Of a DNA stretch of 64,000 nt, positions 9,571-51,822 are shown one piece after another. A model generated the notes under the pieces. The model worked only from the letters and a program-made list of their open reading frames with translations. It was not told the origin of the DNA and made no database searches. Numbering within the stretch: position 1 is the first letter of the stretch; every line of letters starts with the position of its first letter. The stretch comes from Acidobacteriota bacterium (lineage in GTDB: Bacteria > Acidobacteriota > Vicinamibacteria > Marinacidobacterales > Marinacidobacteraceae), in NCBI GenBank assembly GCA_009840635.1, contig VXNL01000074.1, forward strand, positions 28,156 through 92,155, written 5' to 3'. The translations under genes and the position numbers were made by a program.

Positions 9571-9755
9571 CAGCAGCCGGTGGCAAAACCCACGCGGCGT
9601 TCGACGGGCAATGCATCCCGGTTGAACCGCGCCTCTACGAGGCGCTCTGCGTTGCGTTTCGGTCGAAATACACCCGGTATTCCTCCCTCACGCGCCTTGT
9701 CAGCCGGGCGCCTTCCCCGTCTCGGCGCTCACGTGGGTTTCACCACCGGCTGCTA
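9571..9755 (-). repeat. Structured intergenic repeat family 1, copy A
   Basis: Terminal inverted repeats AGCAGCCGGTGGCAAAACCCACG...CGTGGGTTTCACCACCGGCTGCT around the conserved core GTTGCGTTTCGGTCGAAATACACCCGGTATTCCTCCCTCACGCGCCTTGTCAGC, shared with copies at 17076, 37812 and 42341. Confidence 0.9.
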
Positions 9756-10988
9756 GACCTCGGTCAGGAGGTGGCCCATCCGCTCCTTCTTGGTGCGCAG
9801 GTAGTCGCGGGAGTACTTGTTCGCCGGCACCTCGATGGCGACCCGCTCCTCGATCACGAGACCGTGGGCTTCGAGGGCGACGAACTTTCGCGGGTTGTTG
9901 GTCAGCAGACGAATCCGTCCGACGCCGAGGTCCCGGAGAATCTGGGCGCCGACGCCGTACTCGCGCTGGTCGGCCCGGAATCCGAGGTGGGTGTTGGCGT
10001 CCACCGTGTCGAGGCCGTCGTCCTGGGCCGCGTACGCCCGCAGTTTGTTGACGAGTCCGATGCCCCGCCCCTCCTGGTTCAGGTAGAGCAGCACCCCGGC
10101 GCCCTCTTCCCCGATCCGGGCCAGCGCCGCCTCGAGCTGCGGGCCGCAGTCGCACCGAAGCGATCCGAAGACCTCGCCGGTCAGGCATTGGCTATGGACC
10201 CGCAGCAGTACCGGCGTGTCCGGCCGGGCTTCGCCGAGTTGCAGAACCAGGTGTTTGGTCCCGTCGAGGGTGTTCTCGTAGGCGACGGTGCGGAACTCGC
10301 CGAACCGGGTCGGGAGTACGGTGGATGCCAATCGCCGCACCAGGGACTCGGTGCGGAGCCGGTAGCGGATCAGGTCCGCGACGCTCACGATCGCCATCCC
10401 GTGTTTCCCGGCGAAGGCCAGGAGGTCCGGAAGGCGGGCCATCGTGCCGTCTTCCTTCATCACCTCGCAGATGACCGCGGCCGGATAGAGCCCCGCGATT
10501 CGCGCCAGATCCACTCCGGCCTCGGTCTGTCCCGCCCGCTGCAGCACGCCACCGGGGCGGGCGCGGAGCGGGAACACGTGGCCCGGCCGGACCAGGTCGG
10601 ACGGCCTCGTTTCCTCGTGGATCGCGACCTGGACGGTCCGGGCCCGGTCCGCGGCGGAGATGCCCGTCGTCACCCCGTCCTTTGCTTCGATGGAGACGCA
10701 GAACGCGGTCTCGTGCACCGAGGTGTTGTCCTGGACCATCAACGGAATGTCCAACCCGTCGAGGCGTTCCCCGGTCATGGGCATGCAGATGAGGCCGCGC
10801 CCGTGCGTGGCCATGAAGTTGATCGCTTCGGGGGTGACCTTTTCGGCGGCGATCGTCAGGTCGCCCTCGTTTTCGCGGTCCTCGTCATCCACGACGATGA
10901 CCATGCGGCCGGCGGCGATTTCGGAAACCGCCCGCTCTACCGGCCAAAACGCCGTGGATTCGCTCTTTCCCGTGTCAACCACGCGCAC
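9753..10988 (-). CDS. ribBA: Bifunctional DHBP synthase / GTP cyclohydrolase II
   Basis: VVDDEDRENEGD, RPGHVFPL, RVHSQCLTGEVFGSLRCDCG, QEGRGIGL, LTNNPRK. Confidence 0.96.
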   Translation of the reverse strand: MRVVDTGKSESTAFWPVERAVSEIAAGRMVIVVDDEDRENEGDLTIAAEKVTPEAINFMATHGRGLICMPMTGERLDGLDIPLMVQDNTSVHETAFCVSIEAKDGVTTGISAADRARTVQVAIHEETRPSDLVRPGHVFPLRARPGGVLQRAGQTEAGVDLARIAGLYPAAVICEVMKEDGTMARLPDLLAFAGKHGMAIVSVADLIRYRLRTESLVRRLASTVLPTRFGEFRTVAYENTLDGTKHLVLQLGEARPDTPVLLRVHSQCLTGEVFGSLRCDCGPQLEAALARIGEEGAGVLLYLNQEGRGIGLVNKLRAYAAQDDGLDTVDANTHLGFRADQREYGVGAQILRDLGVGRIRLLTNNPRKFVALEAHGLVIEERVAIEVPANKYSRDYLRTKKERMGHLLTEV

Positions 10989-11042
10989 AACACCTCGTCG
11001 GGCTCGAGGAGCCCTCGTCCGGAAACCGTCTCGAAAAGGAGT

Positions 11043-11672
11043 TTAGCCTTCGTCCGGGGTCCCTCGACCGGGACCCGGTGCGGAATCCTGGAGCAGCGCC
11101 CCCACGTACTTGGCCAGGATGTCGTACTCCACGTTGACGCGGTCTCCCTTGCGGAGAGCCCCGAGGGTGGTTGCGGCGCGCGTGTGGGGAATCAGCATGA
11201 CGTCGAAGCACGCCTCACCGGGCGAAGCGGCCGCCACCGTCAGGCTGACCCCGTCGATTGCCACCGAACCCTTGCGGACGATCCAGCGGGGCTCCCGGTG
11301 CCGGACGCTCAGCCGATAGTCGTCGTCGGAACCCCCCGCTTCGATCACCTCGCCGCAACCGTCCACGTGTCCCTGGACAAAATGCCCGCCCAGACGGTCC
11401 GACGCGCGCAGCGGCAGCTCCAGGTTGACCCGGTTCCCCGGCCGCAGGTCCCCGAGCGTCGTCAGCGAGAGCGTCTCGGCCGCGACTTCGAACGATGCGG
11501 ATGCGGGCTGGACCGACACCGCGGTCAGGCAGACACCGGACACCGCGACGCTGTCGCCGACCGAGAGCCCCGAGAACTCGCCGCCGCCATGCCCAACGGT
11601 GAGAAGCCGTCCGGCGGCGAGATCCCGCACCGCCTGCACGTCGCCGACTGCGATGACGAGTCCCGTGAACAT
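11043..11672 (-). CDS. ribE: Riboflavin synthase (alpha chain)
   Basis: MFTGLV start, GVCLT, VNLELPL, RLGGHFVQGHVD, KGSVAIDGVSLT, VNVEYDILAKY. Confidence 0.95.
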   Translation of the reverse strand: MFTGLVIAVGDVQAVRDLAAGRLLTVGHGGGEFSGLSVGDSVAVSGVCLTAVSVQPASASFEVAAETLSLTTLGDLRPGNRVNLELPLRASDRLGGHFVQGHVDGCGEVIEAGGSDDDYRLSVRHREPRWIVRKGSVAIDGVSLTVAAASPGEACFDVMLIPHTRAATTLGALRKGDRVNVEYDILAKYVGALLQDSAPGPGRGTPDEG

Positions 11673-11793
11673 CCGGCCGGGAGATTGCCCGATCCGCCCC
11701 GATCGCGCAAGGAGGCGGGCGCGCGGCGCGCCTCCCCGGAACGCGGCGCTCACGCGACCCGGTCCGCCGGCCGCTGCCCATACGATCCGCTCC

Positions 11794-12933
11794 GTGGACG
11801 ATCGCTTCATGCGGCGGGCCCTCGAACTCGCCCGGCTCGGCCAGTACACCGCGCCGCCCAATCCGGCCGTGGGCGCCGTACTGGTCCGCGACGGGCGAGT
11901 CCTGGCCGAGGGCTTCCATGCCCGCGCCGGACGTCCGCACGCGGAAGCGCAGGTGCTCAAGGTGGGGCGCGCGGCGCGGGGCGCCACGCTCTACGTCAAC
12001 CTGGAACCCTGCTGTCACGTCGGACGGACCCCGCCGTGCGCCGAACGGATCATCGCCTCGGGAGTGCGGCGGGTCGTGGCAGCGCATCCCGACCCCGACC
12101 CGCGAGTGCGCGGCGGCGGGTTCGACCGGCTTCGCTCCGCCGGCGTCGAGGTGACGACGGGCGTCCTCCGCGAGGAGGCGCAGGACCTGAATCCCTCGTT
12201 CTTCAAGTTCCTCCTGACCGGCACTCCCTGGGTGACGGTGAAGGCCGCGGTTTCCGTGGACGGGGTCATGGCCCCGCCCGGGACCCGCTGGATCACCCGC
12301 CCCTCGAGCCGCCGCCACGGAAGAGTGCTGCGCCGGGAAAACGACGCCATCCTCACCGGAATCGCGACCGTGACGGCCGACGATCCCCTGTTGACGCCCC
12401 GGCCCCGGCGGGGATCCCGTCCCCTGCTCCGGGTGGTCCTCGATCCCAGCCTCCGGATCTCCACCGAAGCGCGCGTGCTGCGCGGCCTCGACCAGGATCC
12501 GGTGCTCGTCGTTTGCGCGCCCGGCGCGCCCGTAGCGGCTCGCCGCCGCCTCGAGAACCTGGGCGTCGAAGTGATCGAGGCGGAGGTGGAGCGCGTGGCG
12601 GACCCCTCGCACGAGGGCGTCACCCAGCCGATCGCGCTGGAGGCGGTGCTGGCCGAAATCGGTGGCCGCGGCGCCCACACCCTGCTGGTGGAAGCGGGCC
12701 CCCGACTCACGTCCGCATTCCTGCAGCAGGGGCTGGCCGACCGCTTGGTGCTCTACCTGGCGCCGCGTTTTCTGGGCCGTGCGGAGGGAACCGGTCTCTT
12801 CGACGCCACCCGGGCTCCGGCCGGCGGCCGCCGTCAGTTGCCATCCGCCCAGCCCGAGCCTCGCTCGGCGCGCTACGCCTGCCTCGGCCCCGACCTTCTC
12901 GCCGACTTCCGGCTGGCCGGGCGGCGGGAGTGA
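11794..12933 (+). CDS. ribD: Bifunctional riboflavin biosynthesis deaminase/reductase
   Basis: PNPAVGAV, HAE, LEPCCHVGRTPPC, DAILTGIATVTADDPLLT, LLVEAG. Confidence 0.95.
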   Translation: MDDRFMRRALELARLGQYTAPPNPAVGAVLVRDGRVLAEGFHARAGRPHAEAQVLKVGRAARGATLYVNLEPCCHVGRTPPCAERIIASGVRRVVAAHPDPDPRVRGGGFDRLRSAGVEVTTGVLREEAQDLNPSFFKFLLTGTPWVTVKAAVSVDGVMAPPGTRWITRPSSRRHGRVLRRENDAILTGIATVTADDPLLTPRPRRGSRPLLRVVLDPSLRISTEARVLRGLDQDPVLVVCAPGAPVAARRRLENLGVEVIEAEVERVADPSHEGVTQPIALEAVLAEIGGRGAHTLLVEAGPRLTSAFLQQGLADRLVLYLAPRFLGRAEGTGLFDATRAPAGGRRQLPSAQPEPRSARYACLGPDLLADFRLAGRRE

Positions 12934-12953
12934 AGCGCTGCCCGGGTGTCCGG

Positions 12954-13610
12954 TCAGCGCTTCGCCAGAGGAAAACGGTCGAGCCGTTCGTAGACCGCTC
13001 CACCGGGGCCGAGGAAGCTGGCGAACAGGCCGAACTCCCTCACGGTGAACGCGCATGACCAGGCGGCGTCCGGCGCCGGAGGCCGGGCGGCATTCAGATC
13101 CCCTGCCGCAAGACGCGAAGGGACACGCAGCCGGCCGAGCGTCACGTGGGGAACGAAGGGCCGTGTCTCCGGCGCGAGGCCGAGGTCGCGGGCAACCGCC
13201 TCCACCTCCCGCTGCAGGGGCAGGAGCCGTCCGGGATCGGGCTCCGGAACCTCCTCTTCAGCGAGCCCCACCCAGACGATCCGGGCGCGGCGGAGCGAGC
13301 CGAATGCCGAGATCTCGGCGGCCTTGAGCGTCAGGGGCCCCGGGCAACACGCCTCGAGCCGCTCGCGAAGCAGCGCCGCAATGCGCCCGCGGTCAACCGG
13401 GCCGCCTTCCGGGCCGAAGAAGCGCAGGGTGAGATGGAGGTTCTCGGGAGGAACCCGGCGGAAGACGGAAGCGGGAAGCAGGCGGGCTACCGCTCCCGAG
13501 GCGGCGAAGAGTTCGCGGCGGAGCGCGCCGGGGAGCGGTAGCGCTGCGAAGAGCCGCGGCGCCTGGGCCGCTCCTCCGTGCTCTCTCGCGACCGTCCCGG
13601 ACCCTCGCAT
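12954..13610 (-). CDS. thpR: RNA 2',3'-cyclic phosphodiesterase (2H family)
   Basis: RLFAAL, two HxT motifs (NLHLTLRFFG, FVPHVTLGR); follows cinA. Confidence 0.9.
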   Translation of the reverse strand: MRGSGTVAREHGGAAQAPRLFAALPLPGALRRELFAASGAVARLLPASVFRRVPPENLHLTLRFFGPEGGPVDRGRIAALLRERLEACCPGPLTLKAAEISAFGSLRRARIVWVGLAEEEVPEPDPGRLLPLQREVEAVARDLGLAPETRPFVPHVTLGRLRVPSRLAAGDLNAARPPAPDAAWSCAFTVREFGLFASFLGPGGAVYERLDRFPLAKR

Positions 13611-13611
13611 G

Positions 13612-14886
13612 TCAGTGGCCGGCATCGCCGGCCGCCAGCATGCTCTGGCGCAGCAGGTCGAGCGCCGCCGTCGCGGTGAGTTGCCGCACGAGCGCCCGAT
13701 CCCCCGGAAGGCGGAACCGTCGGGCACGGGAGACCGGGCCGCTGACCGCGACCCAGACGAGGCCCACCGGTTTCTCGGCGCTCCCTCCCCCCGGACCGGC
13801 GATCCCGGTGACTGCAACGCCCCAGGTGTTGCGGGAACGGCGCCGCGCACCGTCGGCCATTGCCATCGCTACCGGTTCGCTGACCGCTCCGTGCGCAAGA
13901 AGCGCTTGTTCGGGAACGGCCAGCAGATCTCGCTTGACTTCGTTGGCGTAGGCAACCACTCCCAGATCGAACCAGGCGGAGGACCCCGGAACGCGGGTCA
14001 CCCGCTCGGTAATCAGCCCCCCGGTGAGTGATTCGGCAAACGCGGCGCGCTCTCCCCGCCGCTCGAGGAGTCGTCCCACCGCATGCTCGAGATGCTCTCC
14101 CGCCGTCCGGCTGAAGACTGCCGGGCCCAGCCGTTCCGCCATTCGATCCGCGAGCTCGCGGACTTCCGCGGCCCGTCCGTAGGGCCCGGTGACCCGGATC
14201 TCGATCTCGCCGCCGGAAGCGAGGATCGCGAGCTGGTGCGGCGCAGCCCGCGCCGGGGTGAGATCCAGGATCCTCTCCTGCAGGACCGATTCGGGCAGTC
14301 CGGCGACCATCAGCGTCTCGCGCACCCCGCCCCCGGTCCGTCCGGTTTCACGCTCGAGACGCGGCCGTACCTCCGCGTCGAACATCGCGGCCAGTTCCGA
14401 GGGCGGCCCCGGCAGAAGCACGAGCCACGCACCGGCGGCGGTGCGCGCCAGTACCCCCGGTGCGGTCCCCGCGGGATTGGGCAGCGCCGCCGCCCCTTCG
14501 GGAATGAGGGCCTGCCGCCGGTTCACCTGCGGCATTTCGATCCCACGGTTCCGGAAGCGCGCCTCGATGCTCGCCAGCGAGGTCGCATCCTCGACCAGCC
14601 GGACCCCCAGGACGCTCGCCGCCGCGAAACGCGTCAGGTCATCGCTCGTGGGACCGAGCCCGCCGCAGACCAGCACGTACCGGCAGCAGCCCAAGGCCAT
14701 TCGGAGGGTCTCCTCCAGGAGCGAGTGTTCATCGGGAGCGACCGCCGAAAAGCGAACGGCCGCCCCCAGGTCCGAGAGCCGCTCCTTGAGCAGCGGAGTG
14801 TTGCGGTCCGGGCGGCCGGAGGCGAGAAGTTCGGTGCCGACCGCGATGATGGCCGCACCGGGCTTCGGACCCTCTCCGCTCGTCAG
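13612..14886 (-). CDS. cinA: CinA-like competence/damage-inducible protein (MoCF domain + PncC NMN deamidase); probable CTG start
   Basis: In-frame AAIIAVGTELL...DRNT upstream of the listed ORF, then GGLGPTSDDLT, LLPGPPSEL, AESLTGG, GAVSE, VTGIAGPGGGSAEKPVGLVW. Confidence 0.92.
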   Translation of the reverse strand: MTSGEGPKPGAAIIAVGTELLASGRPDRNTPLLKERLSDLGAAVRFSAVAPDEHSLLEETLRMALGCCRYVLVCGGLGPTSDDLTRFAAASVLGVRLVEDATSLASIEARFRNRGIEMPQVNRRQALIPEGAAALPNPAGTAPGVLARTAAGAWLVLLPGPPSELAAMFDAEVRPRLERETGRTGGGVRETLMVAGLPESVLQERILDLTPARAAPHQLAILASGGEIEIRVTGPYGRAAEVRELADRMAERLGPAVFSRTAGEHLEHAVGRLLERRGERAAFAESLTGGLITERVTRVPGSSAWFDLGVVAYANEVKRDLLAVPEQALLAHGAVSEPVAMAMADGARRRSRNTWGVAVTGIAGPGGGSAEKPVGLVWVAVSGPVSRARRFRLPGDRALVRQLTATAALDLLRQSMLAAGDAGH

Positions 14887-14983
14887 AAGACCGGCTCCCG
14901 AAGGACCGCCTCACCCACACGCCGGACGAGCGGGGCACTCACGGCGAGAGAGCCGACCCGCGCCGCCCCCAGTTGCACCGGCT

Positions 14984-16018
14984 TCAGATGCCCAGGGCGA
15001 GCAGCAGGACGATGCGCACGACACCGCCCGCGACCAGGTCGTCGGCCATGATGCCGATGCCACCCGGAAGCCTCTCGGCCTGTCGCACGGGAGGCGGTTT
15101 CACGATGTCCAGGAAGCGGAAAGCCACGAAGGCGCCCGCCATCACGAGGACCGACGGGTTGGTGCCGACGAGTGCCAGCCACATCCCGCAGAACTCGTCC
15201 ACCACGACGGACCGCGGATCCGGCTGCCGTAGATCCTTCGCGTGGCGCGCCCCGGCCCAGAGGCCGACCGCCACGGCCACGACCAACAGGGTCACGGGAA
15301 GGCCGCCCGGCAGGTTCCGCGTCAGCAGGAAGGCGACCAGGCCGGCGGCCGCGCCGGCAGTTCCCGGCGCGACCGGAACCCGCCCGATGAACGCGCAGGT
15401 CGCAATGAAGGCGGCGAGCCGCGACGGAGCGCTGGCCGGAAGGGATTCCCCGGCAGGTCCCGGCGTCCCTGCGTCCTCGGTCCACGGCGCGTCCCAGTCG
15501 GACGTGTCTTCGGGCCGGAGGGGCAGATCCTCCTGCCCGGCATCCGCGGCGACGCCTGGCTGCGAACCCGCCGGAACTGGCTTCGGCGAAGCTTCTGGCG
15601 GACCGGCGCTCCGGCTCCGACGATCCTCGGCTTCCTGAAGGCGGCGCTCCACCCGTTCGCGGACTCCCGAGGCCTCCGCGGCGGGAGAGGATGCGCCCTC
15701 GTCCTCTGCATCCGACGTCCCGGCCTCGGCGCTCGTACGTCCTTCGGCCACGCGCCGCCGGATGGTCGAACTCCAGTGTTCCCCGGCCGAGGGCTCCCGA
15801 GAAGGATGGGGCTCGGAGAGCCGTTCCCGATCGCCGGGGGGATCGGATTCGTCCGCGCCGTGCGCGGCCCGGCGGCGGAGCGCCTCCTCCACCCGCTCGC
15901 GAGTGCCGGGCTCCCGAACTCCATCCGCCATCCCGGCGGGGCCTGCTGCCTGAGCTTCGCCCGGCTGCGGGTCGGGCTTCGCGACGCTGGCCCTTTCTTC
16001 CGGAACGGATCCGGTCAC
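14984..16018 (-). CDS. pgpA: Phosphatidylglycerophosphatase A with long disordered N-terminal extension
   Basis: C-terminal APGTAG, DPRSVVVDEFCG, FRFLDIVKP, GGIGIMADDLVAG. Start uncertain (GTG 16018 has a GGGGAGAGG SD; 16090 possible). Confidence 0.85.
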   Translation of the reverse strand: MTGSVPEERASVAKPDPQPGEAQAAGPAGMADGVREPGTRERVEEALRRRAAHGADESDPPGDRERLSEPHPSREPSAGEHWSSTIRRRVAEGRTSAEAGTSDAEDEGASSPAAEASGVRERVERRLQEAEDRRSRSAGPPEASPKPVPAGSQPGVAADAGQEDLPLRPEDTSDWDAPWTEDAGTPGPAGESLPASAPSRLAAFIATCAFIGRVPVAPGTAGAAAGLVAFLLTRNLPGGLPVTLLVVAVAVGLWAGARHAKDLRQPDPRSVVVDEFCGMWLALVGTNPSVLVMAGAFVAFRFLDIVKPPPVRQAERLPGGIGIMADDLVAGGVVRIVLLLALGI

Positions 16019-16182
16019 GCCCTCTCCCCGATCGTCCGGGCTCACGGAGCGGGACCGGGGAAAGCACGAATCATGGGTCGAACCCTGCACCGGAGTGGGT
16101 GAGGAACAGCGAAACTATACTGCCGGCTCCCGGGAACCAACGGCCGGATTTCCCCCCGAACAGGCCCGGCTAGGAGAGCTGG

Positions 16183-17103
16183 ATGGGCAACGACTCACCG
16201 GCGCCGAACAACCTGCTCGAGGCGGTCCCGAACTTCAGTGAGGGACGGTCCCAACCGACTCTCCGCCGCCTGGTGGAGGCGGCGGGACCGCCGCTTCTCG
16301 ACCTGCATGCGGACGCTTCCCACCATCGCTCCGTCCTGACCCTCGCCGGAAGCGCCTCGCAACTGCGTTCCTCCGCGCGTTCGCTCTTCGAGACCGCCGT
16401 CCGCCGCATCGACCTGCGGCGCCACCGGGGCGAGCACCCGCGCATCGGCGCGCTCGACGTCCTCCCGATCGTCCCGCTGGGAGGGACCACCATGGACCGC
16501 GCGGTGCGCCTGGCCGTCTCGCTGGCCGAAGAAATCGGCTCCGACCACTCGGTTCCCGTCTTCCTCTACGGGGAAGCCGAGCCCGGCCGGCGCACCCTCC
16601 CGCAGATTCGCCGAGGCGGACTTCGCGGCCTCGCGGAGCGCCTCGCCCGGGGGGAGATTCGTTCCGACTACGGCCCGCCCTCCCTGCACCCGTCGGCCGG
16701 GGGCATCGCCGTCGGTGCAAGGCGGCCACTCATCGCGTTCAACGTCAACCTCGAGACGTCCGACGCGGGAATCGCGCGGGCCATCGCCGGGCGGATCAGG
16801 ACGAGCGCGGGAGGTCTTCCCGCGCTCAGGGCTCTCGGAGTGCGACAGGCCGATCCCGCGAGCCGCCGGGTCCTCGCCCAGGTCTCGATGAACCTGCTGG
16901 ACTGGCACCGGACCTCCCTGGCTGACGCGTTCCGCCGCGTGCTGGCAGAGGCGGGGGCGGCCGGTACCGGAGTCGTCCATTCGGAAATCGTCGGACTCGT
17001 TCCCCGCGCCGCGACCTGGCCGGGGATGGAAATGGAAATCGCGCTCCGGGAGCCGGCCCGAACCATCGAGGGGGTCTACCAGTCTGTGGTGAGACCCACG
17101 TGA
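16183..17103 (+). CDS. Glutamate formimidoyltransferase (FTCD N-terminal-like)
   Basis: LLEAVPNFSEGR, DASHHRSVLT, IDLRRHRGEHPRIGALDV, GARRPLIAFNVNL, QVSMNL, SEIVGLVP. Confidence 0.9.
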   Translation: MGNDSPAPNNLLEAVPNFSEGRSQPTLRRLVEAAGPPLLDLHADASHHRSVLTLAGSASQLRSSARSLFETAVRRIDLRRHRGEHPRIGALDVLPIVPLGGTTMDRAVRLAVSLAEEIGSDHSVPVFLYGEAEPGRRTLPQIRRGGLRGLAERLARGEIRSDYGPPSLHPSAGGIAVGARRPLIAFNVNLETSDAGIARAIAGRIRTSAGGLPALRALGVRQADPASRRVLAQVSMNLLDWHRTSLADAFRRVLAEAGAAGTGVVHSEIVGLVPRAATWPGMEMEIALREPARTIEGVYQSVVRPT

Positions 17104-17298
17104 GCGCCGAGAGCGGCGAGGCCCAGTTCTCCCGGTGGGGCCAGTCCTCCCGGTGGGGGCCCGGCTGACAGGGCGCGTGAGGGAGGAATACCGGGCGTAT
17201 TCCGACCGAAACGCAACGATGAGGGCCGCGCAGCGGCCCGGTTCAGACGGGATGCATCGCCGTTCGAATGCCGCGTGGGTTTGGCCACACGCTGGTAG
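17076..17298 (+). repeat. Structured intergenic repeat family 1, copy B (overlaps the formiminotransferase 3' end)
   Basis: CTACCAGTCTGTGGTGAGACCCACG...CGTGGGTTTGGCCACACGCTGGTAG; core GCTGACAGGGCGCGTGAGGGAGGAATACCGGGCGTATTCCGACCGAAACGCAACG. Confidence 0.9.
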
Positions 17299-28035: not shown

Positions 28036-28082
28036 GCGATGAAATGCCTACCGGGAGAACCGGGCTCGTCCGCGCGCCAGGT

Positions 28083-37811: not shown

Positions 37812-38034
37812 TTAACAGCCTGTAGCAAAACCCACGCGGCCCAGTTCTCCCGGTGGGGGCTCGAGCGGCGATGCATCCCACCTGAACCGCCCCGCTTTGC
37901 GGGGCTCGTCGTTGCGTTTCGGTCGGAATACACCCGGTATTCCTCCCTCACGCGCCTTGTCAGCGGGACCCCCACCGGGAGAACTGGGCCTCGCCACTCT
38001 CGGCGCGCGCGTGGGTTTCACCACAGGCTGTTAA
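37812..38034 (-). repeat. Structured intergenic repeat family 1, copy C
   Basis: TTAACAGCCTGTAGCAAAACCCACGCG...CGCGTGGGTTTCACCACAGGCTGTTAA; perfect internal 22-bp inverted repeat 37838-37859/37969-37990; same core as copy A. Confidence 0.9.
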
Positions 38035-41000
38035 GCCGGGAGGGAAGCGGCGGCGCCCGCGGTGTCCGGTTCCGTTGCCGCGGCGATCCAGTCCTCCACC
38101 TCGGCGCCGATCTGCATCGAGATCAGCCGGGAAACACCGGGTTCCTCCATCGTGACTCCGAACAGATGCTCGCACGCCTCCATCGTCAGCCGGTTGTGGG
38201 TGATGACGACGAGCTGGGTATCCCGCTTGAGCTCGTCCAGCATGGATGCGAACCGCCGCACGTTCGCGTCGTCGAGAGGAGCGTCCACCTCGTCCAGGAG
38301 GCAGAAGGGCGCCGGACGATAGCGGAAGAGGGCGATGAGGAACGCAATGGCCGTCATGGCCTTTTCCCCACCCGAGAGGAGGCGGACGCTCTGCAGCTTC
38401 TTGCCGGGCGGCTGGGCCGCAATCTCCACCCCGAGCTGGGCATCCTCCGGCATTTCCGGGGCGAGCGATCCCGGTTCGGGGTTCCAGGCCTCGAACTCTT
38501 CACCGGTCCCCGCGGCCGCCGATTCGCCGACCCCGTTTTCCGAACTTCCGGACGCCGCCCGGTCCGGATTCCCGCCAGCGGGGTCGGCGCCCCGGCCCGT
38601 TCCCTTGGCCGTATCCGCCGACTCGCGGGAACCGGGAGGAGGCGTCGCGACCAGCCGCAGTTCGGCGCGGCCGCCCCCGAAGAGTTGCCGGAAGGCCTCG
38701 TCGAACCCGGCGCTGACCGCCTCGAAACCCTCGCGGAAGATGCGGCGGGCCTCGCGGTCCTGGCGGCGGATTGCGGCGAGGCCGTCGGCGATGCCGTGTT
38801 CCACGTCCCGGAGGTGTGATTCGGGTTCGCGGCGTTCCGCCTGCAACTCGCGGAGCCGCGCTTCGGCAATCTCGTTCACCGGACCCAGGTTCCGGATGCG
38901 GTCCTGCACCTCGGCAATCTCCTCCGCAAGATCCTCGCGGGACCGGCCGCGGAGCGGCGCCGGAAGGGACGCGGCCGCGTCAGCGAGCGAACGTCCGCCC
39001 GAGCGCTGGAACTCGCCCTCCAACTCCCGCAGGAGACCCTGCGCTTCCTGGGTTCCCGACCGGACCTTGTGCAGGTTCTCTTCGAGGTCGCGGATTTCCG
39101 CCGTCCGGATGCGCGCGGCCTCGACGGCGCCTTCGAGCCGGGTTCGCAGGTCGCCGGCCACGCCGGCCAAGGTTCCTTCCCGGGCTTCCCAATCCCTGAT
39201 GGCGGTTTCGGCCGACTCCCGCTCGCGAAGCGCGGCCGCGCGCCGCGTCCGCCATTCCTCTTCTTCCCGCCCAGCCGCGGCGTGCTCGGCGCGGATTCGG
39301 TCCAGCCGCTGACGGTCGTCCCGGACCTGCCCCTCGAGAGCCCGCGCCCGGCCCGCGACTTCTTCGGCCACCGCGTTGTGGCGCGCCAGTTCACGGTCGG
39401 CGTCGCGCCACTGCCCCTCGCGGGCCTCGAGCTCGCGCCGAAGGGCCGCGTGGGCTCGGTCCCGCTCGCCGAGTTCGCGGGACGCTTCCTGGAGCCGCGC
39501 CTCGTCGCGAGCCAGCTGCGCCGCCGCGCGGGCATCGGCCTTCTCGTTGCCCTCCGCTTCCTCGGTGTGCCGGGAGACCTCCGCTTCCAGCTCTTCGATT
39601 CGCGTCGAGACGTCGTCGAAGGTCTCCCCGCGCCGGTCCGCCTCGAGCAGGAGCCGGTGGGCGAGGTTCTCCGCCCGCGCCAGCGTCTGCCGCAGATCCT
39701 CGACCGCTGATCGAGCTTTTTCCGCCGCCTCCCGGGCGCCGGTCGAGGCGCGGGCCAGCCGGGCCAACTGCCGGGTTCCCTCACGCTTCCGGGTTTCGAG
39801 TTCGGTCACTTCGCGCCGCGTGCTCAGGAAGCCCTCACCCGGCCCGCCCCGGCCGAACCGCACGACTCCGGGAGGCGTCACGCTGGCCCCGTCCCGAGTC
39901 ACGTAGGCGCCGGGCTTCCTCAGGAAAGCTCGAAGCGCCTCCGTCAGGTCCGCGGTGACCACCGCATCCGGAATGGCAGGCTGGAGTCCCGGATCCTTCG
40001 GTCTCAGGTGGTCGCCCAACCGATCGTCTTCATCCTTCACGACCCGCTCCCGAGACGCGCAGGCTTCGAGCAGCTCGGATACCAGGACCTCCGAGGGACC
40101 GGCCTGCTGGCCGCCAAGTTCCTCGACAAGACCCGAGACATCGGCCACGCGGTCGATCCGGATGCGATGAACGCCGAGGAGCCGCTCCGCCGCCCGCTCG
40201 TATCCCGGGTCCACCTCCACCAGCTCGCCGAGCGCGCCGCCGGGCGCGAGTCCGCGGCGGCGAGCCGCCTCAACGACTTTCGAGGCACTTTCGCCCAGTT
40301 GGTTGCGCGACGCGAGCAGCGCCTCGAGGGCCCGGTGGCGGTCCGAAAGGGCGGCCTGTTCCTCCGCGGCCCTCGCCTCTTCGTCACGCGCCGCCTGCGC
40401 CCTGGAGGTCGCCGAACGCCACCCCGCTTCGGCCGTCTCGAGCCGGCCGCGCAGACCGGTGATTTCGTCCTCCTGCGCCCGGACCCGCAAACGCGCTCCG
40501 GCGAGGCCCCGGGTCGCGTGATCCAGGCGGGCGGCGAGCTCCCGGCGACTCCCCGAAAGTCCCAGTCCGGCCGCCGACAGGCGCTCGCGCCGGGTCGCGT
40601 ACTGGTCCCGTGACATCCGGAACGATCGGACGCTCGCCCGCAGGCGATCCACCTCCCGCCCCAGTTCCCACAGCCGGGAGTGGGCCTCGCGTTCCTCGGC
40701 CAGCGCCCGGTCCCGGGCCGCCACCCGCTCGGTGGCCGCCTCGGTCAACTCGGCCAGCCGGTCGGGGAACTCCCCGGCGCGGCGCTCACTCTCCTGCCGC
40801 TCGATCTCGAGATCGTCAAGCCGGGCTTCGAGGGCCGTGGCCTCCGCGTCGAGACGGGATACCTGCGAGGCGCGGATCCCGGCGGCTCGGGCGCCTTCGT
40901 CGAGGAGTGCGGCCGCGCGAGCCCGACGCGCTCCCAGATCGCCGATTTCCCGGGTCGCTTCGCGAAGTTCGAACTCGGTGCCGGTGGCCTGCTCCCGAAG

Positions 41001-41951
41001 AGCCTCCACGAACCGTTCGAAGGCTCCGAGGCTCCGGGACCGGCGGGCGCGCTCCGCGCCAAGGGCATCTTCCGGAGCGGAGTTTTCGCGGATGCGGGAG
41101 AAGAGTTCCTCGCGTCGCGCCGCCTTCTCGGCAACACCGAGCATCTGCGCCTGTTCCGAGGCCTCACGAACCCGGCTCGCGGTTCGCGAGTCGCGCCGCG
41201 CCACCCGGATGTACCGGTCCAGTTCACGAAGCCGCTCGCGCACGCGCTCGAGCGCCTTCTCGGCCGCCCGCAGGTTCGCCTCGCTCTCCCGTCGATTCAG
41301 GCGATAGGCGCCGAGTCCGACCGCCTCGTCGACCAGCAGCCGTAGATCGGCGGGTTTGCGGCTGAGAACGTCGTTGGCGCGCCCCTGCTCGATCAGCGCG
41401 TAGGACCCCGGGCCGAGTCCGGTTCCGGCGAACAGCCGCCGGATCTCTCGCCGGGTGCACCGCCGGCCGTCCATTTCGTAAACGGACTGTCCGCTGGCGT
41501 CCACGCGGCGGCTGACGACCACGTTCCGCCGGAAACCACCGGCCGCCCCGCCGTCTTCCGGGATCGGTCCGGCGGCGCCGTTGCCGGGGATCCTGGGCGG
41601 CGCGCCCGACTCGGGCGGAACACCGTTTCCGGCAACCGCGTCCGCTCCGTTCCTCGGGACGCCGTTTTCGGACTCTCCCGGTTCCGAACCCCGGGCCCCG
41701 CTGACGTGGAGCCGCACCTCGGCGACCCCGAGGGGCTCGCGCAGAGCGCTCCCACTGAAGATGAGCTCCTTTCCCCGCGCCCGGATCGTGCCGGCGCCCA
41801 GCTCACCGAGCACCCAGAAGACCGCGTCGGCGATGTTGCTCTTGCCGCAGCCGTTCGGCCCCACCACCGCCGTGGCGCCCTCCCCGAACTCCAGCGTCAC
41901 CGGCTCGGCGAAACTCTTGAATCCGGCGATCTCGAGCCGCTCGATCCTCAC
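38031..41951 (-). CDS. smc: Chromosome partition protein SMC
   Basis: GFKSFA, Walker A GPNGCGKSN, long coiled coils, hinge, LGPVN, LLSGGEKA, LLDEVDAPLD, VITHN. Confidence 0.95.
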   Translation of the reverse strand: MRIERLEIAGFKSFAEPVTLEFGEGATAVVGPNGCGKSNIADAVFWVLGELGAGTIRARGKELIFSGSALREPLGVAEVRLHVSGARGSEPGESENGVPRNGADAVAGNGVPPESGAPPRIPGNGAAGPIPEDGGAAGGFRRNVVVSRRVDASGQSVYEMDGRRCTRREIRRLFAGTGLGPGSYALIEQGRANDVLSRKPADLRLLVDEAVGLGAYRLNRRESEANLRAAEKALERVRERLRELDRYIRVARRDSRTASRVREASEQAQMLGVAEKAARREELFSRIRENSAPEDALGAERARRSRSLGAFERFVEALREQATGTEFELREATREIGDLGARRARAAALLDEGARAAGIRASQVSRLDAEATALEARLDDLEIERQESERRAGEFPDRLAELTEAATERVAARDRALAEEREAHSRLWELGREVDRLRASVRSFRMSRDQYATRRERLSAAGLGLSGSRRELAARLDHATRGLAGARLRVRAQEDEITGLRGRLETAEAGWRSATSRAQAARDEEARAAEEQAALSDRHRALEALLASRNQLGESASKVVEAARRRGLAPGGALGELVEVDPGYERAAERLLGVHRIRIDRVADVSGLVEELGGQQAGPSEVLVSELLEACASRERVVKDEDDRLGDHLRPKDPGLQPAIPDAVVTADLTEALRAFLRKPGAYVTRDGASVTPPGVVRFGRGGPGEGFLSTRREVTELETRKREGTRQLARLARASTGAREAAEKARSAVEDLRQTLARAENLAHRLLLEADRRGETFDDVSTRIEELEAEVSRHTEEAEGNEKADARAAAQLARDEARLQEASRELGERDRAHAALRRELEAREGQWRDADRELARHNAVAEEVAGRARALEGQVRDDRQRLDRIRAEHAAAGREEEEWRTRRAAALRERESAETAIRDWEAREGTLAGVAGDLRTRLEGAVEAARIRTAEIRDLEENLHKVRSGTQEAQGLLRELEGEFQRSGGRSLADAAASLPAPLRGRSREDLAEEIAEVQDRIRNLGPVNEIAEARLRELQAERREPESHLRDVEHGIADGLAAIRRQDREARRIFREGFEAVSAGFDEAFRQLFGGGRAELRLVATPPPGSRESADTAKGTGRGADPAGGNPDRAASGSSENGVGESAAAGTGEEFEAWNPEPGSLAPEMPEDAQLGVEIAAQPPGKKLQSVRLLSGGEKAMTAIAFLIALFRYRPAPFCLLDEVDAPLDDANVRRFASMLDELKRDTQLVVITHNRLTMEACEHLFGVTMEEPGVSRLISMQIGAEVEDWIAAATEPDTAGAAASLPA

Positions 41952-42152: not shown

Positions 42153-42315
42153 GCCTGGAGCGCCGGCTTCACCGGCACTGCCCGCCGCCGGCGGGCGGAG
42201 GGACGGACCTCGTCCGTGGAGGACGAGCCTCCGCCCGGAACATCCGGCAACACGGCGATTCGCCGTTCCGCTGCGCTCCGCGCAGCGGGTGCCGGCTGAA
42301 GCCGGCGTTCCAAGC
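42153..42315. repeat. Inverted REP-like doublet (family 2; REPIN/BIME-like)
   Basis: GCCTGGAGCGCCGGCTTCACCGGCAC (42153-42178) and GTGCCGGCTGAAGCCGGCGTTCCAAGC (42289-42315) in opposite orientation with hairpins between them. Confidence 0.7.
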
Positions 42316-42340
42316 CGCCCCACCTCCTTCACCGGCTCCG

Positions 42341-42522
42341 AGGGGCCGGTGGGCGGGGTGGGGTGAGCGCCGAGAGTGGGGAGGCGCCTGGCTGACAAGG
42401 CGCGCGAGGGAGGAATACCGGGTGTATTTCGACCGAAGCGCAACGACGAGCGAGCCGAAGGCGAGCGGTCAGCCGGGATGCATCGCCACTCGAACGCCGC
42501 CCCACCCCGTCCACCGGCTCCT
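42341..42522 (+). repeat. Structured intergenic repeat family 1, copy D
   Basis: Same core (GCTGACAAGGCGCGCGAGGGAGGAATACCGGGTGTATTTCGACCGAAGCGCAACG); outer stem GGGGCCGGTGGGCGGGGTGGGG...CCCCACCCCGTCCACCGGCTCC. Confidence 0.88.
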
Positions 42523-42541
42523 ACAATCCGGCAAGTCCGCC

Positions 42542-44812
42542 GTGGGTCTCCTCAGCCGCTACATCGTCCGGCTCATCGCCCCCGGCGTCTTCCTCGGGAC
42601 CGCCGTCTTCCTGTTCGCGCTGCTGCTGAACGAACTGATCGTCAACATCGAGCTGATCGTCACCCAGGGAGCGAACCCGGGAACGGTGGGGATGGCCTTT
42701 GCTCAGTTGATCCCGGCGCTCCTGGCCGTAGCCGTCCCGAGCGCCCTGCTGCTCGGGATCCTGCTCGCGCTGAACCGGCTGTCCAGCGGACACGAACTCA
42801 TCGCCATGCGAGCCGGCGGAATCTCTCCCTGGCGTCTTCTGGTTCCGATCGGGACCGCGGCGGGAGTCACGTTCGGTCTGTGCCTGTGGTTGATGCTGGA
42901 CGTAGTACCGCCGGCGAACCAGCGGTTCGTCGAGCTGAGAGACGACCTCCTGAGTTCCCGGCTGCGCACCGAGATCGAGCCGCGCATGTTCTATGACGAG
43001 CTCCTCGACGGCCGGGTCCTGCTCGTGGGCGCCGTGCCTCCGGGCGAGGACGGCTGGAGGCGTGTCTTTCTCGCCGATACCGCGCGCGTCGACGAGCCGA
43101 CCATCTTCGTCGCGGACCGCGGACGGCTGGTGACGGTCGCCGAAGAGCGGCTGGCGTTTCTCGAACTCACCGACGTGGAAGTCCACAATGCCGGGCTCGA
43201 CGATCCGGGGCAGTACCGCATTCAGCGCGCGGAGCGGATCCGCCTGCCGCTAGATGCCGAGGAGGTGTTCGGCCCGGAAACCCCGAGTGTCAGCCACAGC
43301 GCCCGGGCCATGATGCTGCCCGATCTCGTAGCCGCCTACGAAGGCACCGACCACCCGATCTACCTGGTCGAGATTCACAAGAAGTTCGCGTTTCCCTTCG
43401 CCTGCCTCGCCTTCGGACTGCTCGGGCTGGGCATCGGGATCCGGCCGTCGGCGGGACCGACGCGCGCTGGATCGTTCGCCGTGGCCATCCTCGTGATCCT
43501 CGCCTGGTACGCACCGAACGCGTTTGGCGAACAACTCGCCGGGGCGGGAGAGCTGTCCCCCTGGATCGCCATGTGGGGAGCCAACATCGCGACGGTGGCC
43601 GCCGGCATCGCCCTGCTGGCCCTGGCTTCGAGGGAATTGCACCCGCTGGAGGCGGCCGGTCGCCTCCTCGGCCGGCTGTGGCGCCTGGTCCCCCGCCGCC
43701 GTTCGGCGGTGCGCCGGTGGCGTCCGCCGGGACTGCCCACGATCCTGGACCGCTACGTGGTTGCCCGCTACCTCACGTTCCTGTTGATAGCGCTGGCCGC
43801 GCTGCTCTCCTGGGAACTGATCGGCCTGCTCAACGCGGTGATCGGCGACGCCTTCGAGCGGGACATCCCGACTTCCACCGTGCTTCGCTACCTCGGCCTC
43901 TCCGTTCCGGGGTTCACGGCCCAGATGTTTCCGCTCGCGACCCTCACGGCGACGCTCGTGACTTTCGGCCTCCTGAGCCGTCACAACGAGGTGACGGCGT
44001 TTCTCGCCGGGGGGATCAGTCGCGCGCGCCTCGTGGTCCCGGCGCTCGCCACCGGACTGCTCGTGAGCGGCGCCGGCTTCGGGCTGCAGGAACGGCTGAT
44101 ACCCCAAACGGCGCCCCAGGCCGAAGACACCGGCGCCCGCATCCGGGGCGAGGCGCGGCGGACGGTCAATCCGCTGGAACGGCACTGGGGATTGGGGCCC
44201 CAGGGACAGATCTACCACTACGACGAGTTCGACGCGGACAACGTGGTCCTGAGCGGGCTGTCCGTATTCCGGCTCAGTCCGGAAGGCGCCTCGCTCGCCG
44301 CGCGCAGCTACGCGGCTTCCGCCCACTGGTCGGCGGCGGAAGCGACCTGGACCGGGATCGGAGGCTGGGAGCGCGACCTCCATGGCGGCCGCGCCGCCGA
44401 GCCGTTCGCCGTGCGGGAGATTCCGGACGTTTCGGTACCGGATGCACTTCTCAAGGTGGACCTGGCCACCGACCACCTTCCCTATCGCGACCTGGAGCAA
44501 CGTATCGAAACGATCGAGGCGGCGGGTCACCGCGATCCGGTGCTTCACGTAGCCCTCGAGACCAAGACCTCCCTGCCCTTCGCATCGCTGGTCACGGTGC
44601 TCATCGGGCTTCCGTTCGCATTCCGGAGGACGAATCAGAGCGCCTGGGCGAGCGCCGCCATCGCCTTCGCGATCGCGATCGTCTATCTGGTGGCCACCCA
44701 GTTCTTCCGTTCCATCGGGAACGCGGAACTGCTCGACCCGGTGCTGGCGGCGTGGTCCCCGAACCTCTTCTTCGGGCTCGCTTCGGTCTTCCTGCTGCTG
44801 CAGCGTCGTTAG
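42542..44812 (+). CDS. Fused LptF-LptG LPS export ABC permease
   Basis: Two tandem YjgP/YjgQ domains: LSRYI...ELIAMRAGGIS...EIHKKFAFPFAC and ILDRYV...NEVTAFLAGGIS...LAAWSPN. Confidence 0.88.
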   Translation: MGLLSRYIVRLIAPGVFLGTAVFLFALLLNELIVNIELIVTQGANPGTVGMAFAQLIPALLAVAVPSALLLGILLALNRLSSGHELIAMRAGGISPWRLLVPIGTAAGVTFGLCLWLMLDVVPPANQRFVELRDDLLSSRLRTEIEPRMFYDELLDGRVLLVGAVPPGEDGWRRVFLADTARVDEPTIFVADRGRLVTVAEERLAFLELTDVEVHNAGLDDPGQYRIQRAERIRLPLDAEEVFGPETPSVSHSARAMMLPDLVAAYEGTDHPIYLVEIHKKFAFPFACLAFGLLGLGIGIRPSAGPTRAGSFAVAILVILAWYAPNAFGEQLAGAGELSPWIAMWGANIATVAAGIALLALASRELHPLEAAGRLLGRLWRLVPRRRSAVRRWRPPGLPTILDRYVVARYLTFLLIALAALLSWELIGLLNAVIGDAFERDIPTSTVLRYLGLSVPGFTAQMFPLATLTATLVTFGLLSRHNEVTAFLAGGISRARLVVPALATGLLVSGAGFGLQERLIPQTAPQAEDTGARIRGEARRTVNPLERHWGLGPQGQIYHYDEFDADNVVLSGLSVFRLSPEGASLAARSYAASAHWSAAEATWTGIGGWERDLHGGRAAEPFAVREIPDVSVPDALLKVDLATDHLPYRDLEQRIETIEAAGHRDPVLHVALETKTSLPFASLVTVLIGLPFAFRRTNQSAWASAAIAFAIAIVYLVATQFFRSIGNAELLDPVLAAWSPNLFFGLASVFLLLQRR

Positions 44813-44827
44813 CGCGCTGAAACGTCG

Positions 44828-45961: not shown

Positions 45962-46149
45962 CGATTCTCCCCGGTTCGCACGATGACGAGGCAACCGCGA
46001 GCCCCGGATCCTGATTGGAATTCGGCTGCTATCATCGCGCGCTCTCCCGAGCATCGAATCCCGAGGCGAACGGCGAAGATCGCCTCTCACTACCGGTCAA
46101 GACCCCAGAGCGAGGAAGGCGTCCCGTAAGCGTGCAACAACACCGCGAC

Positions 46150-47295: not shown

Positions 47296-47314
47296 GCACC
47301 AATTCGCGGCGGGA

Positions 47315-50215: not shown

Positions 50216-50294
50216 GCGGGGACGGATACCGGCGCAACCGCAGTTCCACATACAATTCAGGTCCAGCAGCCTGTGGAGAATCCCTGCTGGATCC

Positions 50295-50708
50295 ATGAAG
50301 TCCTCTCTTGAGGCGGTCGCTTCCGTCCTGGGGAGCCTGCGCCGGAGGTTCGGCAGCCTCGGGGGACGAGCCCTTCGGAAGGGCGCCGAATGGGGGCGCG
50401 TCCTCGCCGCACTCACCGAGCGCGCGGCACCGGTCGTGGTGATCGTGCTGATCGGGGTCGCCGCCGCTGCCGTCGGGGTGAGCGGTCTCGAATCACTGGA
50501 CGAGCAGGGACGGCGACGGGCCGAATTGGCGGCCGAAGTCGAGCGGCTCGGCCGGGAGGCCGCGGCGCTCGAGGACTCCATCGCAGCGCTACGGCAGGAT
50601 CCCGCCGCCTTCGAAGTCCACGCGAAGACCTACCACCACCTGGTCGAGCCGGGTGAGGTCGTCGTGTTGCTGCAGCCGCCCGGCCCCGGGGCTCTCACCC
50701 GGCGCTGA
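50295..50708 (+). CDS. Septum formation initiator (FtsB/DivIC-like)
   Basis: One TM helix, then a coiled coil, then LRQDPAAFEVHAKTYHHLVEPGEVV. Confidence 0.7.
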   Translation: MKSSLEAVASVLGSLRRRFGSLGGRALRKGAEWGRVLAALTERAAPVVVIVLIGVAAAAVGVSGLESLDEQGRRRAELAAEVERLGREAAALEDSIAALRQDPAAFEVHAKTYHHLVEPGEVVVLLQPPGPGALTRR

Positions 50709-50782
50709 AGCAGCTCCGCGCCGGCGGATCGCCCGCACCGCTTCCGGCGGAAGCTCCGTGGAGCGATCCCGGAGGGGTCCGG

Positions 50783-51550
50783 CTATTCGATCCGATACCG
50801 GAGCGGAAAGACCTCTCCGTCGCGATCTACCGTGAGCTCAACCTGGCTTGCGGTCTGAAACCGCTGCACGAGCACCGCCAGCGATTCGGCCCCCCGCACC
50901 TCCCTGCCGTTGACGGCCAGGAGCACGTCTCCGGGGACCAGCCCGGTTTCCCCGAGCACGGTGTCCGTCGGAAAGGCGACGAGTTCCAGCCCGACGACCT
51001 CGTTACCGAGCACCCGTGGGGCGACGACCGCGCTCGACAGGATTCGCGGGAGCTCCGACAGTAGCCGCAGCCGCACGTCATCCCGGGAGAACGTTCGGTC
51101 TCCCGTGTCCCGCGGAGGCCGAGAGGCCTGGGCATCGACCGCCGGGCGCTCCGGCGCTCCAGCTTCGGGACCTGCCGGAATCTCCGTGGGAGCCCGAGTC
51201 TGGACCGGGGTCTCCGGTATCGCGGGAGGCTCACCGCTCCCGGTCAGAACCGCCACCTCCGGAAGGCTCACTTCGAGCGACCGCCCGTCGGGCGCCTCGA
51301 GTTCCACGCCGTCGGCGAGTACCCGCACCACCGTGAATCCACGATGGGCCTCCCCGACCTGGAGCGCCAGCGGTCTTCCCTCGGCAAACCGGAGGAGCGC
51401 GACGCCTGCGTCCCGCTGCTGCACGACTCCGTAGAGCCGGATGGCAGGGCGTTCCGGGTTCCCGGCCTGCTGGCCGGGGGCCGGCTCACTGCCTGCCACA
51501 CCGGCCGCCAGGACGAATACGGCGCCGAGACGGCGATCCAGGAGGCGCAT
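50783..51550 (-). CDS. GspC-like protein (HR-like domain + C-terminal PDZ)
   Basis: IRLYGVV...ALL...QVGE...VLADGVEL (GspC HR-like) and GLVPGDVLLAVNG...LTVDRDGEVFPLRYRIE (PDZ). Confidence 0.7.
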   Translation of the reverse strand: MRLLDRRLGAVFVLAAGVAGSEPAPGQQAGNPERPAIRLYGVVQQRDAGVALLRFAEGRPLALQVGEAHRGFTVVRVLADGVELEAPDGRSLEVSLPEVAVLTGSGEPPAIPETPVQTRAPTEIPAGPEAGAPERPAVDAQASRPPRDTGDRTFSRDDVRLRLLSELPRILSSAVVAPRVLGNEVVGLELVAFPTDTVLGETGLVPGDVLLAVNGREVRGAESLAVLVQRFQTASQVELTVDRDGEVFPLRYRIE

Positions 51551-51614
51551 GGAGGCGGGCCTGGAGTGTACGGTGCGCCAGACAAGGACGCGGGGGGGTG
51601 GAGGAGGCCCCTGC

Positions 51615-51822
51615 CAGCAGCCGGTGGAAAAAGTCACGCGGCATTCCCGAGCTACGAAACATGCCGGCCGACGGTTGTCGCCGGCCGCCATGCTTCGTGC
51701 TCAAGGGGTCTCCGCGGGGCTCGAACTCTCGCCCCGCTTCGGAAGCGAACGGGACGGTGCATCCCGGCTGAACTGGGCCTCGCCGCTCTCGGTGCTCACG
51801 TCACTTTCTCCACCGGCTGCTA
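51615..51822 (-). repeat. Structured intergenic repeat family 1, variant copy E (core deleted, other hairpins inserted)
   Basis: AGCAGCCGGTGGAAAAAGTCACG...CGTCACTTTCTCCACCGGCTGCT; keeps TGCATCCCGGCTGAAC and GAACTGGGCCTCGCCGCTCTCGG of the other copies. Confidence 0.8.

Follow-up and report, generated by a model that had tools for sequence, protein, structure and literature searches.

A mobile, TA-flanked repeat family of Vicinamibacteria with a fold conserved on one strand

The locus analyzed here raises the question of whether a dispersed repeat with a conserved secondary structure is a transposable element, a structured nucleic acid under selection, or both. The analyzed stretch (hereafter the window) comprises 64,000 nt, positions 28156-92155 of contig C40 in a metagenome-assembled genome (MAG) of an Acidobacteriota bacterium (3.58 Mb in 110 contigs, 69% G+C, 92% complete). 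This genome is labelled G000 and is referred to as the own genome; other genomes carry labels such as G003, G006, and G009, and individual loci carry L numbers. A first-pass annotation of the window had reported five copies of the repeat, and whole-length alignment recovered all of them, with ends trimmed to 9571-9755 on the minus strand (copy A), 17077-17297 on the plus strand (copy B), 37813-38033 on the minus strand (copy C), 42340-42523 on the plus strand (copy D), and 51615-51822 on the minus strand (copy E). Our preferred explanation, to which we assign a probability of about 0.6, is that the repeat constitutes a family of non-autonomous MITEs (miniature transposable elements with inverted repeats) of the IS630/Tc1-mariner type, that its fold is under selection as a single strand, and that the folded molecule is RNA.

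Mobility and a probable link to IS630-family insertion sequences

All copies share the same anatomy, namely a TA dinucleotide, a terminal inverted repeat of ~25 bp that forms the closing stem (P1), a conserved core, the opposite inverted repeat, and a second TA. In every copy, the two ends are paired with each other over the outer ~25 positions, and nearly every copy starts with G or A after the first TA and finishes with C or T before the second. One of the two flanking TAs is frequently changed by mutation, in most cases to a TG located 3'. The copies are intergenic: an overlap of more than 40 nt with a called gene was observed in only 4 of 179 copies (genes were called with our own caller based on codon log-odds statistics, whose calls cover 90.7% of contig C40).

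The first-pass annotation had proposed a search for empty sites, and such sites were found, with duplication of a TA target. Clean pairs of empty and filled sites, with a single TA in the empty state, were obtained at four sites, namely L013 versus own contig C28, L001 versus own contig C64, L012 versus L103, and the site of copy E. The last is empty in G009 and G017, where CTGC-TA-GACT corresponds to CTGC-CA[...]TA-GACT in the filled state. The site of copy A is empty in G016 (..GGACGC-TA-GACC..), and here the filled copy has diverged, with TG and three extra bases on one side. At some "empty" sites, 7-12 nt from one end of the element are still present, pointing to internal deletion as the way of loss. 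In addition, neighboring copies in arrays share a single TA, and copies also nest in one another.

Comparison of nine own copies with congeners, whose flanks are about 85-96% identical, showed that five are unique to the own genome (A, C, E, and two copies on contig C4) and four are shared with one to three congeners (D, C62:33185, C62:36262, and C62:39670). For example, copy C is absent at the orthologous site in G009, G015, G016, G011, and G017, and an orthologue of copy D is present in G016 and G011. Five distinct orthologous filled pairs, mostly nested copies, were found among the first 118 loci. At one orthologous TA site (own C62:36262-36446; G016:C49:36110-36294; L241 on contig C34 of G017), the main subfamily is present in G000 and G016 and a different one in G017; the two differ in inner stems and core variants and are identical in the outer 13 nt, as a result of either gene conversion among copies or more than one insertion at this site. 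In 51 of 179 copies, the end of the element serves as the TAG or TAA stop codon of a neighboring gene. With 69% G+C, the genome has few TAs, and stop codons are therefore frequent targets; an element that begins with G or A restores the stop codon after insertion.

On this evidence, the repeat is a mobile MITE. One could suppose instead that the copies are ordinary, non-mobile genes of a multi-copy small RNA, and the strong fold and the lack of a matching Rfam family would suit such genes. We give this idea next to no credence, and the empty sites in fact refute it; the duplication of TA, the nested and arrayed copies, the identity of one set of ends with those of an insertion sequence (IS), and the 28-293 core motifs in each of five congeneric genomes also speak against it. 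An ancestral single-copy gene was considered and rejected as well: six copies from five genomes that have only one to three matches are TA-flanked, have terminal repeats of their own, and lie in unrelated contexts.

The IS in question is an IS630-family (DDE_3) element of 1146 bp with 12 copies in G006, which also occurs in G008 and G018 and is missing from the own MAG. Its ends are TAGTGTGG(T/C)GTCCCGCAAAT, and C-TA-GTGTGG(T/C)GTCCCGCAAAT is read on both sides. One MITE subfamily of the own genome (L136/L141/L142) has the same ends, identical at 20/20 nt; no MITE core was detected in the IS bodies examined. The view of the first-pass annotation that the repeat is unlike a typical MITE is not supported in view of these ordinary TA duplications and, for one subfamily, IS630-type ends. 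It had also named ends matching a known IS of this genome, together with ordinary target duplications, as evidence that would speak against its proposal: the TA duplications and, for one subfamily, the ends were found, and the matching IS resides in congeners, not in this MAG.

IS copies and MITEs are also found side by side. Six of ten IS630 loci examined lie directly at a MITE end or within a MITE loop, and MITE ends seem to create IS landing sites in a TA-poor genome. At L165, L176, L177, L178, L181, and L182 of congeners, IS630-family copies were observed at the TA beside a MITE end, between arrayed MITEs, or in the CTAG of a MITE hairpin loop. DDE_Tnp_1 IS copies are CTAG-bounded too.

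In the proposed mechanism, an IS630-family DDE transposase supplied in trans would bind the terminal repeats, excise the element, and paste it into TA, often within CTAG, with duplication of the TA. The same core is carried by several terminal-repeat types, whose ends would have been exchanged between transposase lineages, and stem variation would then represent end exchange and not only base-by-base compensation. This mechanism is supported by analogy for the one subfamily with matching ends, and we infer it for the others.

A fold under selection on one strand

The closing stem is at least partly a set of exchangeable terminal repeats. As the first-pass annotation had noted, it varies between copies and stays paired within each, and the named stem variants were all found. 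Much of the apparent covariation of the closing stem is thus exchange of end types and is in itself no argument for a single-strand fold; a transposase, too, needs both arms to be changed together.

Across 20 canonical own copies, on which a covariance model (R1) was also built, RNAalifold predicted 66 pairs, and both partners have changed in 41 of them. The fold takes the shape of a long rod comprising inner helices P2 and P3, and its tip carries a GA-rich hairpin arm (P4-P5), joined in this genus by another hairpin (P6). The helix of the P4-P5 arm is broken by two tandem G.A/A.G loops in the 185-nt form and by three in a 164-nt form found in other families; the GG/CC pairs between these loops are flipped to CC/GG in the other form. 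In 148 distinct copies from relatives, 95.7% of the cells are paired, compared with 86.3% after shuffling and 30-43% after sliding of partners, and 46 of the 66 pairs show double changes. The covariation score is 0.249, versus 0.105 after shuffling and about 0.04 after sliding, and in 500 shuffles no observed measure was reached. Covariation extends to the inner helices, which do not belong to the terminal repeats (7 of 9 pairs in P2, 5 of 7 in P3, and 4 of 5 in P6). Compensation can also be followed in place: where G000 has a C-G pair, the orthologous copy in G009 has A-T, and one stem pair of copy D is G-C, G.A, and T-A across three species.

The mismatches in this fold are asymmetric between the strands. 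G-U cells number 785 and A-C cells 59 in the alignment of 148 copies. By parsimony, changes from Watson-Crick pairs led to G-U in 202 events and to A-C in 48 (p 1e-23), in addition to 158 double changes, and the unpaired columns, which are 76% purine, are symmetric (75 C>T plus A>G changes versus 77 G>A plus T>C changes). In the terminal repeat, G-U and A-C events stand at 64:19 on terminal branches and at 25:6 on internal ones; in the inner helices, they stand at 78:21 and 35:2, respectively. A weaker excess was observed in five distant genomes (23:10, p 0.035). Furthermore, fold energies favor the same strand in 26 of 27 own copies, in 121 of 128 from relatives, and in 30 of 31 distant copies; for copy B, the folding energy of the strand named in the first-pass annotation is -130.2 kcal/mol (z -6.0, with 0/200 shuffles as good) and that of the opposite strand is -104.3 kcal/mol (z -2.8). 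Double-stranded or cruciform constraint and transposase binding are symmetric, so that a four-fold excess of G-U requires a single strand of fixed polarity. The fold is thus under selection on one strand of fixed polarity, and the original proposal of selection on a single-stranded fold holds, with covariation well above both controls.

It might be argued that there is no single-strand function at all, and that the repeats are kept alike for the transposase and by homogenization of palindromes through template switching, with the wobbles inherited from a few master copies. The ends do fall into discrete subfamilies, whole subfamilies replace one another at a single site, and several G-U positions are common to most copies (e.g., 143/146 and 103/125 cells). 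This account nevertheless appears highly improbable to us: the excess persists when events are counted, including those of the inner helices, G-U is seen somewhere in 53 of the 66 pairs versus 31 for A-C, and a symmetric constraint of this kind favors neither strand.

The features of the fold described earlier for the window copies were mostly reproduced. Within the outer 26 positions of the five copies, there are 17 G-U pairs, 0 A-C pairs, and 4 other mismatches; the first-pass annotation had listed three exceptions to the wobble rule, two in copy B and one in copy E, to which a fourth must be added, at the flanking dinucleotide of copy D. The compensatory change from GCGU..ACGC to GCGC..GCGC in copy D is real, and the pair concerned is UA in 12 and CG in 7 of the 20 own copies. 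The core hairpin that had been described as fixed (GG-GA-GGAAUAC) is absent from copy E.

RNA or DNA as the folded molecule

Selection probably acts on the fold at the RNA level. The purine-rich loops, the tandem G.A motifs, and the precedent of ERIC, Correia, and bcr1 elements, which are transcribed and whose RNA structure either acts on neighboring transcripts or is maintained by compensation, speak for it. The folded molecule would be a putative RNA produced by transcription of the element, and its tight, purine-looped module might make insertions tolerable or useful to the host. A possible role of such an RNA would be that of a transcript end or a processing structure, as with the three families just named.

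The relation of the element to neighboring genes was considered in this respect. The first-pass annotation had found the folding strand to be sense to the gene downstream in all five copies. Our gene calls agree for the window copies, and the rule does not extend to the family: among 145 intergenic regions with one copy each, 28 sense and 62 antisense copies were found in tandem contexts (p 4e-4), along with 27 convergent and 28 divergent ones. The own genome alone has 9 sense and 12 antisense copies. The antisense excess was not reproduced in 32 copies from five distant genomes, where sense and antisense copies number 8 each, next to 9 convergent, 2 divergent, and 5 unclassified ones (the caller covers 80% of these loci). 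The G-U bias is independent of the direction of neighboring genes, with G-U:A-C counts of 23:3 in sense, 53:16 in antisense, 21:10 in convergent, and 31:8 in divergent contexts. In an RNA-library run, contigs covered part of the region; one contig came from a relative without copy D, and the depth over the repeat is that of all copies summed, possibly with DNA included.

Several points weigh against the preferred explanation. With regard to RNA, a read-through transcript predicts a majority of sense copies, contrary to the 28 versus 62 observed, and the equal bias in antisense copies means that the RNA would need a promoter of its own or that selection precedes insertion. Neither sigma-70-like promoters nor intrinsic terminators were found in the five copies, for which two stretches were scanned. 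G.T is the mildest mismatch in DNA as well, so that the G-U bias does not discriminate between RNA and single-stranded DNA. With regard to IS630, the main end type, GCAGCC(T/G)GTGGTGAAACCCACG, is on none of the four DDE_3 and two DDE_Tnp_1 IS types of congeners. The own MAG gave no match to PF13358 (DDE_3) or PF01609 (DDE_Tnp_1), and no match was obtained when five congeneric IS630 transposases were searched against it with tblastn. DDE_3 genes occur in 6 of 15 congeners, and they are absent from 36 of the 65 MITE-bearing genomes of the class, including genomes of one or two contigs. Moreover, in G006, which carries the matching IS in 12 copies, no MITE bearing its end type was found at ≤1 mismatch. 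Finally, the covariation and event counts should be read with the following in mind: the motif used to gather the loci fixes the P5 hairpin, the alignment had been fitted to the covariance model, the event tree was derived from the same alignment as the counts, the sampled genomes are related to each other, and copies recombine, as at the site that holds two subfamilies.

Some of these observations would suit single-stranded DNA as the folded molecule, formed during excision, insertion, or replication and moved by a structure-specific enzyme (HUH/RAYT-like or other), comparable to REPINs and relatives of IS200/IS605. The independence of the bias from gene direction and the many copy-rich genomes without an IS630 transposase agree with this, as do the one or two copies of a Y1_Tnp gene in 13 of 16 genomes of the genus and the fact that both junctions face each other across TA.TA pairs in the hairpin. 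We regard it as unlikely, though, in view of the TA duplication and the symmetric ends, which are unlike HUH products, and of the subfamily with the exact ends of a DDE-type IS. Orientation follows no replichore rule either, a check that the first-pass annotation had recommended: hand counts, with the origin at dnaA and the terminus opposite, gave 47 copies co-oriented with the fork and 48 opposed in G003, and 29 and 45, respectively, in G005.

The link to a HUH/RAYT gene that had been envisaged earlier also fails for the own genome. Its sole Y1_Tnp gene is flanked by a different 28-nt repetitive extragenic palindromic (REP) sequence, and no copy of the element adjoins it. Two specific candidates were rejected, i.e., a REP/REPIN mobilized by a RAYT (the gene at C26:14491-14721 is flanked by the other REP, and the element duplicates TA) and an IS200/IS605-derived, PATE-like element (symmetric ends, TA duplicated, and orientation not tied to replication). 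The gene itself is RAYT-like and single-copy and belongs to a locus at own C26:~14440-15100 (minus strand), where the REP, of GTGCCGGCTGAAGCCGGCGTTCCAAGCC type, is present on both sides, with three tandem units on one of them. REPs of this type also occur in the window at 1994-2021 (minus strand), 4583-4610 (plus strand), and 42289-42316 (plus strand), the last of which is 23 nt upstream of copy D.

Spread, window copies, and relation to known elements

An nhmmer profile of the repeat gave 47 matches in the own genome, and model R1 identified 38 loci together with 13 reverse-strand echoes; full copies score 156-218 bits in the forward direction and echoes 33-57 bits. An exact scan for the core hairpin yielded at least 118 stretches in public genomes. 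Among the 80 matches listed, all belong to Acidobacteriota MAGs (Vicinamibacteria or 'Ca. Marinacidobacterium'), several of them with sponge-type isolate names. The core motif (≤2 mismatches) has 265, 221, 95, 28, and 293 matches in five congeneric genomes. Within the class, matches to R1 were present in 65 of the 121 genomes sampled and in 38 of the 65 genera; outside it, a match was found in 8 of about 130 sampled genomes of the phylum. The 164-nt form, which is TA-flanked, lacks P6, and has further end types, gave 124-150 matches per 150 candidates scored in each of G043, G046, and G120. No match to the element was found in plasmid and phage collections.

The repeat matches no described RNA family of Rfam. 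The Rfam search that had been proposed earlier was run with Rfam (15), and no match in the window was obtained at gathering scores; with relaxed thresholds, the best hit for the five copies was MIR918, with 28.9 bits against a threshold of 268. A description of the family was not found in full-text literature searches, which did not cover supplements.

Elements of the family range from 164 to 221 nt in length. In the own genome, the core is about 85-100% conserved inside at least eight closing-stem types, distant families have more of them, and loop sequences are conserved across the class. This could indicate that the mobile element has a functional RNA of its own in the core, which would be refitted with the repeats of successive IS630 lineages and, together with the transposase or some protein of the host, would control or promote transposition, be it in cis or in trans. 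An RNA serving the transposon, much as RNAs of other mobile elements serve their enzymes, would explain why one core is found with many end types throughout the class, and a bias intrinsic to the element strand is in line with it. If true, this would be a transposon-borne RNA of a new kind in DDE cut-and-paste elements. We nonetheless hold it to be quite doubtful: the IS copies examined lack the core, no variable, "guide-like" unpaired segment was seen (the variable part is the paired terminal repeat), and the element shows at most a weak association with DDE_3 genes (by a hand tally over the class, 29 genomes have both, 36 the MITE only, 18 DDE_3 only, including the unpublished G032, and 38 neither).

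The five copies in the window illustrate the diversity of these mobile, folded elements. Copy A is a canonical 185-nt form (205 bits with R1) flanked by TA and TG, and the upstream gene at 9753-10988 (minus strand) has the 5' TAG of the copy for its stop codon. Copy B (221 nt) is a canonical form with two nested mini-repeats at 17122-17158. It starts with TA-C, so that no stop codon is restored; the upstream ORF enters the copy by nine codons (17077-17103) and terminates at the TGA within the conserved GTGAG, a back-up stop for this frame. Copy C (221 nt, 112.5 bits) has one mini-repeat in each arm (37840-37858 and 37970-37988), and its 5' TAA is the stop codon of the gene at 38031-41951 (minus strand). 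Copy D (184 nt, 185.5 bits) has a closing-stem type of its own and is located 18 nt upstream of an lptF-like gene at 42542-44812 (plus strand). Copy E is a chimeric variant of 208 nt (58.5 bits), which has the ends, P1, and the first inner helix (P2) in common with the family and another structured insert in place of the P3-P6 core. Besides these copies, a decayed core without closing stem and terminal repeats was detected at 55871-55969 on the minus strand (nhmmer E 6.6e-5; 33.8 bits, model positions 45-143). It occupies the 101-nt gap between genes at 54301-55863 and 55965-57278 on the same strand and is an old remnant of the family. The window has no tRNA or tmRNA genes.

Smaller repeats were observed inside the MITEs. 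The mini-repeat of 19-22 nt (CCCAGTTCTCCCGGTGGGG type) accounts for the greater length of copies B and C, in which it is nested, and in copy C its two units are at mirror positions of both arms, so that pairing is kept. It also occurs outside MITEs, in the window at 4565-4583 and 28046-28064, and has 65 copies in the genome at ≤2 mismatches. Another structured sequence of ~90 nt, termed module 2, sits at the same inner junction of two MITE copies (own C62:33355-33445 and C58:61256-61343); it is absent from the orthologous copy in G009, and the insert that replaces the core of copy E is a related module.

The family belongs with known structured bacterial MITEs, such as RUP, ERIC, and bcr1. RUP, the pneumococcal repeat unit, as described in PMC2229807, is a small non-coding MITE tied to IS630-Spn1, inserts at TA, and is often found in or beside IS elements. 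The present repeat resembles it in its IS630-family-like terminal repeats and insertion at TA, here with TA duplication, 20/20 matching end positions in one subfamily, and IS copies at MITE ends. It differs from RUP, which is 107 bp long and confined to one species, in its length and class-wide distribution, in the association of one core with many end types, and in that no IS partner was found for its main end type. ERIC/IRU elements are described as imperfect palindromes flanked by 5'-TA-3' that are co-transcribed, fold as RNA, and have an orientation-dependent effect on neighboring transcripts (PMC2229807, PMC3184786). Going by this description, our TA-flanked imperfect palindrome may be set beside these enterobacterial elements, from which it differs in its branched tip with two or three tandem G.A loops, in the prevalence of the antisense orientation in the genus, and in the RNA being putative. 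The bcr1 elements of the Bacillus cereus group are, according to the account in PMC3184786, ~155 bp long and transcribed, with direct-repeat flanks, strain-variable sites, and compensatory changes that keep the RNA structure. They have 5-bp duplications and two independent stem-loops, whereas TA is duplicated here and one long rod closes the element.

Correia elements (NEMIS/CREE) of Neisseria duplicate TA and are cut by RNase III. They are presented as MITEs with inverted repeats, whose transcript hairpins affect mRNA (PMC2229807, PMC3184786). They combine a small number of fixed end types with an IHF site and promoters, whereas end types are many in the present family and the stretches scanned gave no promoter-like site. 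The unusual traits of our family are the combination of one core with many end types, the spread over an entire class, and the clean strand-specific signal.

The repeats occupy a noticeable part of these genomes and are present in over half of the sampled genomes of the class, including those of sponge symbionts. For genome annotation, the element accounts for many "intergenic hairpins", restores or supplies stop codons, and marks hot spots of IS landing. For RNA biology, hundreds of diverged copies of one fold represent a large natural experiment, with clean covariation and a measurable preference of one strand for G-U over A-C, whatever the neighboring genes. Identifying the molecule that is selected, be it a transcript of the element itself, single-stranded DNA, or a transposition intermediate, would shed some general light on why bacterial MITEs keep their structure.

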